This document shows, one piece after another, positions 39,203 through 60,917 of a stretch of DNA of 64,000 nucleotides. A model generated the notes under the pieces. It was not told the origin of the DNA and searched no databases. It worked only from the letters and a program-made list of their open reading frames with translations. This DNA comes from a virus. The stretch covers positions 116,566 through 180,565 of the IMG/VR virus record IMGVR_UViG_3300048694_001005. The stretch is one strand, 5' to 3'. Position numbers and translations under genes: made by a program. Position 1 is the first letter of the stretch, and each line of letters opens with the position of its first letter.

Positions 39203-39289
39203 TCCGGAGTACCCGAGTTGGTAGCAGGGGGCAGACTGTTAATCTGTTGCGCGGAAGCGCCATCGCTGGTTCGAGCCCAGCCTCCGGAG
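39203..39289 (+). tRNA. tRNA-Asn(GTT) with long variable arm, no encoded CCA
   Basis: GCAGA-CTGTTAA-TCTGT; acceptor TCCGGAG/CTCCGGA. Confidence 0.85.
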
Positions 39290-39303
39290 CAAATAACATT
39301 TAT

Positions 39304-46432: not shown

Positions 46433-46522
46433 GGCGGGTTCGCATAGCGGCGATTGCAGTGGTCTCCAAAACCACCGATGAATATACCATCCACGGGAGT
46501 TCGAGTCTCTCACCCGTCGCCA
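46433..46522 (+). tRNA. tRNA-Trp(CCA) with long variable arm
   Basis: GTGGT-CTCCAAA-ACCAC; extra arm GATG/CATC; G73-CCA. Confidence 0.82.
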
Positions 46523-52846: not shown

Positions 52847-53707
52847 ATGTTTATGACAGAACGAATTTTAATCATGGGCCTGCCCGGTGCTGGTAAAACC
52901 ACACTGGCTGCGGCACTAAAAGAATATATTGAAACTAATAGCAATCCTAACCACATGCGGTTAGAACAACTGATGTTTGCCGACGGTATACCCAGTGTTT
53001 GGCATGCTAAGGTGGACTGGTTTAACGCTGATGATGTCAGACGTAAATTCAACGACTGGGATTTCAGTAGTGAAGGAAGAATACGGCAAAGTCTACGCAT
53101 GTTTCAGTTTGCAGTGGCCTGTACCGGAGATTTTGTTATTTGCGATTTCGTTTGCCCGTTGCAGGAAATGCGTAACAATTTTAAAGCTGACTGGACAGTA
53201 TGGGTAGATACCATAGAGGCCAGCAGATATAGTGATACTAACAAAGCATTTGTTAATCCCACAGTCTATGACTTCAGGGTAACAGAAAAGAACGCAGATC
53301 ACTGGGCCGCATTTATTGGTGACCACATTTTACGCAACCAACGTAGACCAACCTTTGACTGGCGCAAGCCTACCGTGCAAATGCTAGGCCGTTGGCAACC
53401 CTGGCATCAGGGTCATAAAGCGTTGTTTGAACGACTGTTGAAGCGTACTGGACAAGTAGTAATTCAAATACGTGATTGCCAGGGCTGGAATGGCAGTAAT
53501 CCATTTGCCCTGGAACAGGTAAAGAGCTTTATACGTCGTGATCTTGATCCAAAATATCAAGGTCAGTATGAAATACAAGTAGTACCCAATATTGTTCATA
53601 TAGGTTGGGGGCGCGGTGTTGGATATACTTCAGGCGAGGAACAGTTTGACGAGTCTATTACTAGTATCAGTGCTACAGAGATACGCAAAGATCTGGGATT
53701 AACTTAA
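52847..53707 (+). CDS. Adenylylsulfate kinase-like P-loop domain fused to cytidyltransferase-like domain
   Basis: MGLPGAGKTT, NADDVR, DFVCP; C-terminal LGRWQPWHQGH, YGRG-like WGRGVGY. Confidence 0.75.
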   Translation: MFMTERILIMGLPGAGKTTLAAALKEYIETNSNPNHMRLEQLMFADGIPSVWHAKVDWFNADDVRRKFNDWDFSSEGRIRQSLRMFQFAVACTGDFVICDFVCPLQEMRNNFKADWTVWVDTIEASRYSDTNKAFVNPTVYDFRVTEKNADHWAAFIGDHILRNQRRPTFDWRKPTVQMLGRWQPWHQGHKALFERLLKRTGQVVIQIRDCQGWNGSNPFALEQVKSFIRRDLDPKYQGQYEIQVVPNIVHIGWGRGVGYTSGEEQFDESITSISATEIRKDLGLT

Positions 53708-54406
53708 GTGTTGACAGAATCACTGATTGTTTTCACCACACCAAGATCAGGATCAACTTTATTATGTGATTGGTTACGGGCATTTTTACCTGGACATTAT
53801 CATGGTTTGGAACCCGACAGAAATGATAAACTTAAACTTCTCACCACTTCAACTGGAAAATTTTGGACTAAAGAAAATTATGAAAAACTTTCAACGTACG
53901 AAAAGTTGCTTATTATCGAAAAGTACAGACCATTCGTAGTAAAAGTTTTCCCATATGATGCAGCCTTATGTAATTTGATGACTACTAGAAAAGTAATTTT
54001 ATTAAATAGAAAAGACATCAAAAAACAAACATTATCACATGCTATTGCAGCCAAAACTAATAAGTTTAACGGAGCCAGCACGAATACAATTAGTGATTTG
54101 ATGTTGAGCAAGGAAGAATTTTTTCAAGTAATTTTTAAGCAATTGGCATCCGTACGGGATTTTGATAACATGAAATCTCGTATATCATCACAAGTAATAC
54201 TAGAACTAAATTACGAAGATTTTGAAAATGATCTTAACAATTTATTTGTAGCATTGCAGCCAGTATTGGGTTTGACCGAAGAACATCGCAAACTTATACC
54301 TAATAACTACGTTAAACAAAATATTAATCACGAAAGCAAAATTGCTAATATTGAATTGTTCAATGATTTGTGGGAAAAACATAAACATATAAGTGGTAGA
54401 TATTAA
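53708..54406 (+). CDS. Sulfotransferase (Stf0-like)
   Basis: TTPRSGSTLL 5'-PSB loop; L.RKD..KQ.LS; YEDF. Confidence 0.75.
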   Translation: MLTESLIVFTTPRSGSTLLCDWLRAFLPGHYHGLEPDRNDKLKLLTTSTGKFWTKENYEKLSTYEKLLIIEKYRPFVVKVFPYDAALCNLMTTRKVILLNRKDIKKQTLSHAIAAKTNKFNGASTNTISDLMLSKEEFFQVIFKQLASVRDFDNMKSRISSQVILELNYEDFENDLNNLFVALQPVLGLTEEHRKLIPNNYVKQNINHESKIANIELFNDLWEKHKHISGRY

Positions 54407-54413
54407 ATATTCA

Positions 54414-55148
54414 ATGCACAATATACCAAGACAAGTACATGTTTGCTGGCATGACAAAAATATAGTAAACAATACATCACCACTTGTTCTGAACGGGATA
54501 CGTAATTTGATAGATCTTAATCCTACTTGGACTATAACTATCCATAACGATAATGATATAGACCTATATCTTAAACAGGAATTAGAAAACAGTGACTATG
54601 ATTTGGTCAAAGACAGTCACATAGTAGCACGTTCAGATGTTTGGAGATTGCTTAAACTATATCGCGAAGGCGGTTTGTATGTAGATATAGATCGTTTCTG
54701 TAATAAAAATTTAGATGTGGTAATTGGCGAGAAAAAATGTATTTTACCCATAATGAATGATTACGACTTTAGTCAGGATTTTATGGCCAGCGAACCACAG
54801 AATCCCATATATCTAACTGCATTGATTATGAACCTTGAACGTAGACGTCAGGGTCATACTAATACATATTTTTTGGGTGCGCAAACCTATATGCATGCAG
54901 TAACTAAAGAAGTATGTGGTGAAATTATCAACACAGATCCTGGGTCAGAAGTATTTGCTGAAATTCGACAACAATTGGCAATGATGAACTTTATAGGTAC
55001 TAGCACCGAATTACCGCCCTGGCATACTGTTATATATGAACATGTACAGGAAACTTGGCGTGGCTCCAGTGATTGTATGGACTGGGAACAGTTAAAACGC
55101 AATTTATATGCAGACTACAATGTTAAACACTGGACTGGAGAATGGTAA
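54414..55148 (+). CDS. DxD glycosyltransferase (OCH1/capsule-synthesis-like)
   Basis: IPRQVH, SDVWRL..LY.EGGLYVDID. Confidence 0.8.
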   Translation: MHNIPRQVHVCWHDKNIVNNTSPLVLNGIRNLIDLNPTWTITIHNDNDIDLYLKQELENSDYDLVKDSHIVARSDVWRLLKLYREGGLYVDIDRFCNKNLDVVIGEKKCILPIMNDYDFSQDFMASEPQNPIYLTALIMNLERRRQGHTNTYFLGAQTYMHAVTKEVCGEIINTDPGSEVFAEIRQQLAMMNFIGTSTELPPWHTVIYEHVQETWRGSSDCMDWEQLKRNLYADYNVKHWTGEW

Positions 55149-55813
55149 TGCACACTGCTAAAGTACCCCGAATCTTTCAACCATTCTATTGTCCCGATCT
55201 TATTAGATTGGGCAAAGATTATGATGGCGGTTATCTAGCCAACAAACAGGATATAACTGCCGCATTACTATTAGTGAGTTTAGGAGTTGGTACTGATATC
55301 AGTTTTGAACGTGATTTCACAGACCTTAACAATTGTGATGTAAAAGCCTGTGATAAAGAATTACACAATATTGATGCAGCTACACTGGAATATTTTACAG
55401 GCGGTCGTCAACTGTGTCAGCAGGAGATAACTGCTGGCACACTGTATAGTATGTTAGCTACCGACCACATATTTTTAAAATGCGACATAGAAGGCGCAGA
55501 ATACAGTATCTTGGATGAACTTATCCAACATGCACATAAATTTACTGGCATGGTCATAGAGTTTCATGATTGCAATAGACCGGAAAATTACAATTCATTA
55601 TTGAACTTTATTGCAAAGATACCACTGCGGTTGGTACATACACATGTGAACAATTATTTTTACTACAAAACCGATACTGGACCTATTCCGGATATTTTTG
55701 AACTTAGTTTCAGCGCAGGATTGAACGTATTATATAAAACACAATTACGATTACCACATGAATTAGATATGCCAAATAATCCACAAGACGGTGAATTTGA
55801 ATTGAAGTTTTGA
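55148..55813 (+). CDS. FkbM-like methyltransferase
   Basis: RLGK.YDGGY, SLGVG.DISFE, LKCDIEGAEY. Confidence 0.7.
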   Translation: MHTAKVPRIFQPFYCPDLIRLGKDYDGGYLANKQDITAALLLVSLGVGTDISFERDFTDLNNCDVKACDKELHNIDAATLEYFTGGRQLCQQEITAGTLYSMLATDHIFLKCDIEGAEYSILDELIQHAHKFTGMVIEFHDCNRPENYNSLLNFIAKIPLRLVHTHVNNYFYYKTDTGPIPDIFELSFSAGLNVLYKTQLRLPHELDMPNNPQDGEFELKF

Positions 55814-56339: not shown

Positions 56340-57008
56340 ATGTTGCGCATGCTGGAAATACGTGCCGCCGAAGGCGGTGAAGATAGTAAATTGTTTGTCA
56401 ACGATTTGGCGCAGGCTTATCTGCGTCTAGCACAGCGAGCTGGCTGAACTGCCCGCCTGCTGGACCAACGTTCGGGAATTTGCACAATGCAGATCTCTGG
56501 CGCTGATTTAGCAGGCTTAGATAATGAACCCGGTGGTCACAGAATACAACGAATACCACCAACAGAACGACGCGGACGAGTGCATACCAGCACCGTTACC
56601 GTAGCCATATTAGATCCCGACAGGCCACAGACCACGATACTGGATCGTGATCTACGTATTGAATGGTACAGTGGTACTGGTGCGGGCGGGCAACATCGAA
56701 ACAAGCACCAAAACAGTTGCAGGATTACTCACTTACCCACAGGTATCATGGCCACCGCGCAATGTCGCAGTCGTGAAAATAGTTTAACTGAAGCACGAAG
56801 CTCTATTGTGCAGCGTGTAACTGCGGCGGCGCAGAATCGTGTCAACACTGAGCAAGCCGAGGATAGACGTCAGCAAGTGGGATCTGGTATGCGTGGCGAC
56901 AAGATTAGGACGTATATGGTTAGATATAATTCTGTAAAGGATCATGCAACAAATAAAGAAATGAGATTTGATGATTTTATGAAAGGTAACATCAATAAAT
57001 TATGGTAA
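56340..57008 (+). CDS. Class I peptide release factor (RF1-like, lacking N-terminal domain) with in-frame TGA at codon 36
   Basis: SD GGAGG; EIRAAEGGEDS..F, TGA at 56445-56447, EPGGHRIQRIPPTERRGRVHTS, GAGGQHRNK. Confidence 0.85.
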
Positions 57009-58073: not shown

Positions 58074-58153
58074 CTCGGTGTCGGATAGCCAGGCTCATTC
58101 CACCTGCTTTGGGAGCAGGCACTACGTAGGTTCGAATCCTACCACCGAGACCA
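58074..58153 (+). tRNA. tRNA-Pro(TGG)
   Basis: CCTGC-TTTGGGA-GCAGG; CCA. Confidence 0.9.
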
Positions 58154-58157
58154 ATTT

Positions 58158-58416
58158 TCAACACTTGACTCCACGCGGGTTGCTGCAAGCAATCTGAGGA
58201 AGTTCAGGACAAGCGCCAGGAGCGTATGGGAGATTGGGGTGGGCAGCACAGCCGATAGGCATGCTAGCCGATAACAGACAACGCGGCCCTGATCATTAAC
58301 ACCAGCGTGATATAGCTTGCAAGCCAAACAGAATGTGATAACTCTTGGATTATACATTCGGGTAGGTGCATAGATGAATGTGGAGATAAAACAGAATCCT
58401 GGCTATGGAGTGTTGA
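58158..58416 (+). ncRNA. rnpB: RNase P RNA (compact bacterial-type)
   Basis: GAGGAAGTTCAGG, GCAAGCCAAA, CGGGTAGG, TAGATGAATG, ACAGAATCCTGGCT match bacterial RNase P conserved regions; P1 and P4 pair. Confidence 0.88.
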
Positions 58417-58424
58417 AATCTTTT

Positions 58425-58508
58425 GCCCCGGTGGTGGAATGGTATACACGACAGTTTGAGGGACTGTTGCCGCAAGGCTTGGGAGTTCGAGTCTCCCCCA
58501 GGGCACCA
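58425..58508 (+). tRNA. tRNA-Leu(GAG)
   Basis: ACAGT-TTGAGGG-ACTGT; long V arm; CCA. Confidence 0.92.
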
Positions 58509-60821: not shown

Positions 60822-60917
60822 GCTCCTGTAGCATAATGGTCAATGCTCCAAGCTTATACCTTGGCGATGCCTCTAGATGAGGGGATGATGTAGGTTCGAA
60901 TCCTACCGGGAGTACCA
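60822..60917 (+). tRNA. tRNA-Ile(TAT) with long extra arm
   Basis: CCAAG-CTTATAC-CTTGG; extra arm CCTC/GAGG; A73-CCA. Confidence 0.82.

Follow-up and report, generated by a model that had tools for sequence, protein, structure and literature searches.

The window analysed here, 64,000 nt in full length, is the final 64 kb of a 180,565-bp IMG/VR viral record with a CheckV completeness of about 51%. The source is a large T4-like phage. The family-B DNA polymerase of the record is 41–49% identical to those of 350–490-kb cultured jumbo phages (Sinorhizobium phage Phosso, Agrobacterium phage Atu_ph07 and the Eneladusvirus group), and the nearest cultured relatives of the window phage are phages of bacteria. 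Between 39 and 63 kb of the window ARAGORN finds 36 tRNA genes, + strand throughout, of which 34 encode the CCA and about 31 have a U at position –1; Rfam at gathering score misses six of these genes. Three tRNAs are long for their class: tRNA-Asn (88 nt, 39203–39290), tRNA-Trp (90 nt, 46433–46522) and tRNA-Ile-UAU (96 nt, 60822–60917). Insertions or long variable arms may be present in these, a point relevant to the idea, raised in a preliminary description of this DNA, that the phage has atypical tRNAs.

Inside the array, flanked by tRNA-Pro(UGG) and tRNA-Leu(GAG), lies what is, as judged from sequence, a genuine gene encoding a bacterial-type RNase P RNA in miniature (Table 1). RNase P RNA is the ribozyme that trims new tRNAs. 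The gap between the end of tRNA-Pro and helix P1 of the RNA is 2 nt and that between the 3′ end of P1 and the start of tRNA-Leu is 6 nt; an RNase P cut at the 5′ end of tRNA-Leu would, because of this short distance, trim the 3′ tail of the ribozyme too. A promoter and terminator scan gave no convincing sigma-70 promoter or terminator upstream of the RNA gene.

Table 1. Coordinates of the compact RNase P RNA, its parts and its neighbours (window positions), and of the phage rnpA gene discussed in the text
Feature	Coordinates	Strand	Evidence
tRNA-Pro(UGG), CCA encoded	58074–58153	+	ARAGORN, Rfam, sequence
Whole compact RNase P RNA, P1 to P1′, 263 nt	58156–58418	+	RF00373 match, P1 finder, helix check
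P1 5′ strand, 11 bp with 58408–58418	58156–58166	+	helix check, family self-versus-cross test
P2 5′ strand CTCCAC, pairs with GTGGAG 58380–58385	58169–58174	+	
P3 hairpin, 9 bp, GCA loop	58176–58196	+	
Block 1 GAGGAAGTTCAGG	58196–58208	+	
CR-I: J3/4 GAGGAA and P4 5′ strand (58201–58203, 58205–58209)	58196–58209	+	
P5 5′ strand CAAGC, pairs with 58315–58319	58210–58214	+	
P6 pseudoknot, J5/7 strand CCAGGAG, 7 bp with P16/17 loop 58342–58348	58216–58222	+	
Reduced specificity region	58223–58314	+	helix assignment inferred
Block 2 GCAAGCCAAA	58319–58328	+	
J5/15 (C58320, A58321, A58322), P15 5′ strand 58323–58325, L15 5′ side AAACA	58320–58330	+	
P16/17 hairpin, 6 + 4 bp, bulged G58337, loop 58342–58348 in P6	58331–58359	+	
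Block 3 CGGGTAGG	58359–58366	+	
L15 3′ side GGGTA (58360–58364) and P15 3′ strand 58365–58367	58360–58367	+	
Block 4 TAGATGAATG	58371–58380	+	
J18/2 TAGATGAATG, identical to E. coli 327–336	58371–58380	+	
P2 3′ strand GTGGAG	58380–58385	+	
Block 5 ACAGAATCCTGGCT	58391–58404	+	
CR-V: J2/4 ACAGAA (58391–58396) and P4 3′ strand 58397–58404	58391–58405	+	
P1 3′ strand	58408–58418	+	P1 finder, helix check
tRNA-Leu(GAG), CCA encoded	58425–58508	+	ARAGORN, sequence
rnpA equivalog	LR756502.1 525189–525473 (L139:1435–1803)		TIGR00188

The RNA is homologous to RNase P RNA. The preliminary description had recognised five conserved RNase P RNA blocks in the right order; all are present, and the resemblance is far beyond chance. 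It had also proposed Rfam covariance models as a check, with the lack of any significant match as part of a refutation. That outcome did not occur: RF00373 (archaeal RNase P) matches exactly 58158–58416 (model positions 1–288, 39.6 bits, E = 4.9e-10) in a permissive-filter search of 58100–58480 (381 bases), which corresponds to an E of roughly 1e-7 for the whole window. The match is significant but lies under the gathering score of every Rfam model, that of RF00373 being 84. RF00373 is the best Rfam match within its clan, cmscan giving only the top model per clan. An Rfam scan of the window at gathering scores returns tRNAs only, and RF00010 (bacterial class A; gathering score 100 bits) has no match in the window or the 180-kb record, even at E ≤ 10. 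A blastn search of the element against 50,697 GenBank phages gives no match, megablast with 12 kb around it gives tRNA matches only, and minimum free energy folding by itself is uninformative (z = –1.06). The ORFs that overlap the stretch were set aside; they also traverse tRNA genes, and the covariation described below has the pattern of an RNA.

The retained parts are P1–P6, P15–P17, the bulged U of P4, the GGU of L15, the A248-equivalent of J5/15 and J18/2. P1 closes the RNA, as had been described, and has 11 bp (58156–58166 with 58408–58418), which extends the RNA from the about 259 nt first given to about 263 nt. The proposed continuation of P1 through CTCCA and TGGAG is the weaker reading. 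TGGAG is present twice, making that extension possible on paper, but CTCCAC pairs with the internal GTGGAG as P2, an assignment made because every relative pairs the equivalent 5′ strand with the strand that follows J18/2. P4 is a long-range helix of 8 bp (58201–58203 and 58205–58209 with 58397–58404), with T58204 as the bulged T equivalent to E. coli U69, and the helix check agrees with the earlier statement that A-T stands in place of E. coli G-C, at two pairs. P15 is formed by 58323–58325 with 58365–58367. A58321 is the equivalent of E. coli A248, and G58361, G58362 and T58363 are those of the CCA-binding nucleotides G292, G293 and U294.

The specificity domain (S-domain) has been cut back most. 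The full domain (P7–P14, with the CR-II/CR-III T-loop-reading modules) is absent; 58223–58314 is an unaligned insert in the Rfam and R1 alignments (R1 being the family model introduced below), without P8–P14 and without the J11/12–J12/13 modules. What is left amounts to a P7-like TGG/CCA stem of 3 bp (58227–58229 with 58302–58304) and one expanded hairpin (base 58232–58239 with 58287–58294), both inferred assignments, together with the family-conserved GGGAGA at 58228–58233. J18/2 comes directly after the P15 3′ strand, at 3 nt, and P18 is therefore absent. The reduced specificity domain and short P15–P19 region first noted are thus accurate: P18 is gone, while P15–P16/17 with the L15 GGU and P6 are kept.

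The E. coli sequence used for comparison is the real rnpB gene (L035:317–693, minus strand), encoding M1 RNA (377 nt, RF00010). Identities are 11/15 in CR-I, 12/14 in J5/15, 8/10 in L15/P15, 10/10 in J18/2 and 13/16 in J2/4-P4. The two RNAs share the order P1, P2, P3, P4, P5, P6, P15, P16/17, J18/2, J2/4, and the L15 GGGTA and J5/15 GCAAG motifs are kept in the phage RNA. They differ in that the phage RNA is 114 nt shorter, is devoid of P18, P8–P14 and the CR-II/CR-III modules, and is virus-encoded within a tRNA array. In P4 the phage RNA replaces C71-G356 and G74-C353 of E. coli by A-U, and the 67/68 positions are G-C and U·G, where G and U stand for E. coli A67 and G68, each with a matching change in the opposite strand. 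A67 and G68 are metal-binding sites in E. coli, and their exchange is a point against catalysis by the phage RNA. The best-scoring Rfam model, archaeal type A (RF00373), leaves the S-domain unmatched; its score is probably due to archaeal type A RNA also being without P18 and P13/14. Archaeal type A RNase P RNA is not known to have P13/14.

The window RNA belongs to a family. Two IMG/VR motif scans, one with the CR-IV/CR-V pair and one with CR-I plus AAACAG, yield 33 loci, 25 of them with an element of the same block order; L005, L011, L013, L016, L027, L030, L031 and L033 were rejected as chance matches in coding sequence. The contigs of these loci reach 470 kb, and about 30 relatives in large viral contigs are found in all. 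Only two members exceed the RF00010 gathering score (L007, 145.8 bits; L006, 118.5 bits), the remainder scoring 28–50 bits or being missed. A window-specific motif has zero matches in viral contigs and three in metagenomes, the closer relatives L129–L131. The specificity region of L130 has the layout of the window RNA and the S-domain of L131 is much more bacterial-like, so that the family ranges from a near-complete to a minimal S-domain. One copy, L008:3527–3686, is decayed: only the 3′ half, from J5/15 onward, is present (52 bits), the 5′ half being replaced by seemingly coding sequence.

A covariance model, R1, was built from 14 phage sequences with the window excluded, and covers CR-I to the end of P4 in 153 positions and 26 pairs. 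It matches the window at 58196–58405 over its full length (1–153) with 84.1 bits and an E of 2.8e-18, the sole match in the window and in the whole 180-kb record. The family signature GAGGAAnnTCAGGACA (58196–58211) and the complementary TCCTGG in P4 (58397–58402) are present in the window as well. With a consensus-like member as query, blastn finds copies in the GenBank huge phages LR756502.1 (642 kb; R1 score 126.5 bits) and LR756511.1 (595 kb; 113.3 bits), and matches in the cultured Microbacterium phages Zooman and Big4. The Zooman copy (OK040793.1, ~89338–89558; L136:1396–1616) is not annotated, fills the space from tRNA-Arg(ccg) to tRNA-Arg(cct) and scores 70.2 bits on R1; on RF00010 it reaches 53 bits, below the gathering score, with 0 nt aligned in the P18 segment. 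Big4 (ON637770.1) is a candidate carrier on a blastn match alone, weak at E 0.7 and the same as that given by Zooman. Phosso, Atu_ph07, fHe-Yen9-04 and Serratia BF, the four cultured jumbo phages nearest to the window phage, have no copy.

The family is virus-specific and almost absent from cellular genomes. In viral contigs 16 of 22 motif matches are true members. A search of 185,579 prokaryote species (one genome each, 596 Gb) with the CR-I motif gives 75 matches, a single one of which is a true R1 member, on an 845-bp contig binned into a MAG; the other 74 are chance matches and not family members.

The fold is supported by covariation. RNAalifold recovers de novo P4 with the bulged U, P5, a P7-like helix, P15 and P16. 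Among 30 distinct sequences aligned to R1, 95.2% of cells are paired, compared with 70.6% in shuffles, a percentage that is inflated because the alignments were fitted to the model structure. Double changes occur at 24 of the 26 core pairs (30 sequences; 0/500 shuffles), and the covariation score is 0.612 versus 0.168 shuffled (0/500) and at most 0.092 in slid registers; both the slid-register control and the variety of pair types speak for a genuine fold. Six of the eight P4 pairs co-vary, as do P15 and P16. R1 does not cover helices P1, P2 and P3, which a script identified in every member, in unrelated sequences; these three, like P6, co-vary as well. Each strand pairs better with its own partner than with those of other members, both in P2 (self versus cross 16.3 versus 9.1, 0/5000 permutations) and in P1 (20.9 versus 8.9, 0/5000). 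The P2 test is unbiased and the P1 test is not, since the P1 ends were picked by complementarity. A search for P6, prompted by work on catalytic-domain RNAs (PMC5839562), shows that the J5/7 strand of each member pairs with its own P16/17 loop, in at least nine different P6 sequences. The self-versus-cross scores are 12.7 and 8.5 (0/5000 permutations).

The RNA is under purifying selection. Across 22 sequences the invariant columns comprise GAGGAA, the bulged U with the C after it, the L15 GGU, the AGA..AU of J18/2 and ACAGAA, which in bacterial RNase P make up the universal core and the CCA-binding nucleotides. That the locus encodes, as first claimed, a compact RNase P RNA of the phage within its tRNA array is backed by the covariance-model match, by a leave-one-out model and by covariation in every core helix. 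The same data make it very improbable that the RNA is a decaying relic of a captured host rnpB with no present function. The large deletions relative to cellular RNase P RNA could be read in that way, and the half copy in L008 means that decay does occur. However, in about 30 divergent copies compensatory changes preserve all core helices and the catalytic nucleotides do not vary, and the type is virus-specific, unlike any host copy.

The reading preferred here, to which we assign a probability of about 0.7, is that the compact phage RNA is a functional RNase P catalytic subunit; its catalysis, expression, partner and benefit are inferred. The fold would comprise a complete catalytic domain (P1–P6, P15–P16/17, J18/2, J2/4) and a vestigial specificity domain. 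Precedents lend support, by analogy, to activity without S-domain and without P18 (PMC5839562, PMC3579882). The catalytic domain (C-domain) of E. coli RNase P RNA is catalytic alone, P18 is dispensable for it and a P6-type contact matters; removal of the elbow-binding S-domain elements and P18 from the E. coli RNA lowers efficiency (PMC5839562). The phage RNA has neither P18 nor the S-domain elements that bind the T-loop/D-loop elbow of tRNA. It is thus similar to the engineered C-domain-only RNAs (Eco CP RPR and the Pfu C-domain), which consist of the catalytic domain with little or no S-domain, have P18 absent or dispensable, contain P6 or a P6-mimic and are active in vitro with and without protein (PMC5839562). 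In contrast with these laboratory truncations, the phage RNA is natural and selected, and keeps a small module of P7, GGGAGA and hairpin.

A natural counterpart is the type T RNA of the Thermoproteaceae (Pyrobaculum), which likewise keeps the C-domain, has lost most of the S-domain and was missed by standard models until a dedicated model was made (PMC3579882). The resemblance is one of architecture only: type T RNA comes from archaea, functions with archaeal proteins and represents another sequence lineage, whereas the phage RNA has a bacterial-type L15/P15–P17 and J18/2. Another virus-encoded look-alike of RNase P RNA, that of camelpox virus, is expressed and shows no pre-tRNA processing in vitro (PMC3001073). 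This case is a warning, by analogy, that a viral look-alike can be inactive. It differs in coming from a eukaryotic virus and in lacking a covarying family, whereas the phage family is large and its catalytic nucleotides are conserved.

The protein partner is less clear. The earlier statement that the window has no rnpA extends to the whole 180-kb record, about 51% complete, which has no PF00825 (RnpA) match. PF00825 is likewise not found in Zooman, LR756511 or five related records, one of these records being a complete genome of 469,617 bp that has terminal repeats. On sequence evidence alone, one huge-phage lineage encodes both RnpA and the compact RNA: LR756502 has an rnpA equivalog (TIGR00188, 51.8 bits against a cut-off of 38.35) in which the RNR-motif region is present. 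Relatives of this RnpA are found on four IMG/VR viral contigs, two of which also carry the RNA, one scoring 111.5 bits (476 kb, 97% complete, the sole near-complete contig) and the other 54.9 bits (a fragment). Most carriers would thus need host RnpA or no protein, while this one lineage has both subunits. For the window phage the partner is most likely either host RnpA or a phage RnpA whose gene lies in the half of the genome that is not assembled, both being inferences.

The want of RnpA in most carriers would also fit a non-catalytic decoy or regulator, whose RnpA- and tRNA-binding core soaks up host RnpA or pre-tRNAs and so throttles or redirects host tRNA maturation. P2–P3, J18/2 and J2/4 are the RnpA-contacting regions in bacterial holoenzymes, and all are retained in the phage RNA. 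The camelpox RNA, expressed yet inactive, would be a parallel (PMC3001073). Nevertheless, such a role is unlikely: the bulged U, the L15 GGU and the J2/4 ACAGAA, invariant in very divergent phages, are needed for chemistry or docking and not for protein binding, the phage's own tRNAs bear the matching CCA and U(–1) signals, and the presence of rnpA as well in one lineage is sensible for an enzyme and not for a sponge.

As a catalytic subunit, the RNA would act in the following steps. It would be transcribed within the same-strand tRNA array of the phage, its expression being inferred, and would probably be released by ordinary tRNA processing of the flanking tRNA-Pro and tRNA-Leu. Co-transcription and release by tRNA processing are inferred to be likely because members adjoin same-strand tRNAs; 15 of the 22 members lie within 25 nt of one. 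The RNA would then cut the 5′ leaders off the many pre-tRNAs of the phage, catalysis again being an inference. Substrates would be read through the acceptor end rather than the tRNA elbow, with the L15 GGU contacting the 3′ CCA and the J5/15 adenosine contacting U(–1). The encoded CCA and the U(–1) of the window tRNAs match these two retained readers. The first suggestion that such a catalyst is tuned to odd phage tRNAs and borrows host RnpA is likewise an inference. The presumed benefit is extra or host-independent processing capacity for the burst of phage tRNA precursors.

The same genomic arrangement raises the question of whether the ribozyme acts mainly in cis, on its own polycistronic transcript, cutting the tethered downstream tRNA and its neighbours without being a diffusible enzyme. 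A same-strand tRNA starts 3–16 nt past P1 in 11 of the 22 members, at 6 nt in the window, as such a module would have it. Yet in half of the members the RNA is not directly followed by a tRNA, ORFs coming next in some, and nothing in the fold tells cis from trans action; a restriction to cis seems quite improbable. The diffusible catalytic subunit is the reading kept here. It extends, with somewhat less assurance, to the view that large phages have their own working minimised bacterial-type RNase P RNA, which would function in vivo without the elbow-reading domain, that some lineages have a full viral holoenzyme with phage RnpA, and that maturation of the tRNA array would thereby be host-independent and possibly more permissive.

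RNase P RNA is considered a ribozyme confined to cells and organelles. The literature searched, which excludes subscription journals, has no account of an RNase P RNA encoded by a phage. RNase P is unmentioned in the study of Al-Shayeb et al. 2020 (PMC7162821), the Rfam analysis of megaphages by Lui et al. 2021 gave tRNAs and one tmRNA only (PMC8172020), and the papers on Bcheck and P finder say nothing of phages. The compact RNAs score under the gathering thresholds, which is why megaphage Rfam surveys gave only tRNAs and tmRNA (PMC8172020). The present analysis adds the P6 test, the CCA/U(–1) substrate match, the finding that cellular genomes almost never have the RNA, a lineage with rnpA as well, and a carrier that is in culture. 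If the interpretation is true, a widespread, selected and virus-specific form of the RNA adds tRNA 5′ maturation to the translation functions of huge phages. It would give a natural minimal bacterial RNase P with which to study to what extent the specificity domain is required in vivo, and would account for unannotated gaps of roughly 200–260 nt in phage tRNA arrays. The cultured carrier Zooman and the rnpA-carrying lineage make the idea directly testable.

Some features of the surroundings deserve mention in their own right. The downstream 381-aa ORF has no conserved synteny with the RNA, which none of 18 related loci carries. In two of our loci, L111 and L113, a permuted tmRNA lies just upstream of the homologue of this ORF, in the place held in the window by the cluster of tRNA-Pro, RNase P RNA and tRNA-Leu. 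Other features of related phage tRNA arrays are tmRNA genes, standard or permuted, and a group I intron-like match of 32 bits, which is under the gathering score; the intron-like and tmRNA sites are L002:9612–9801, L009:1020–1390, L010:6227–6645, L111/L113:3515–3861 and L128:449–849. Between the tRNA blocks of the window, at 52847–55813, genes with weak to moderate Pfam matches resemble an APS-kinase-like P-loop protein, a sulfotransferase, a DXD glycosyltransferase and an FkbM methyltransferase, and may form a glycan or sulfation module.

Directly upstream of the RNA/tRNA cluster is a release-factor-1-like gene (56340–57008, + strand), with a TIGR00019 prfA match at 56349–57002 (182 bits, prfA positions 115–342). 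It is without the N-terminal ~115 residues of RF1 and contains one in-frame TGA, while under code 11 the other long ORFs of the window stay open. The TGA presumably falls at the site of a conserved Trp in RF1/RF2; read-through as Trp and an autoregulatory stop are both possible.
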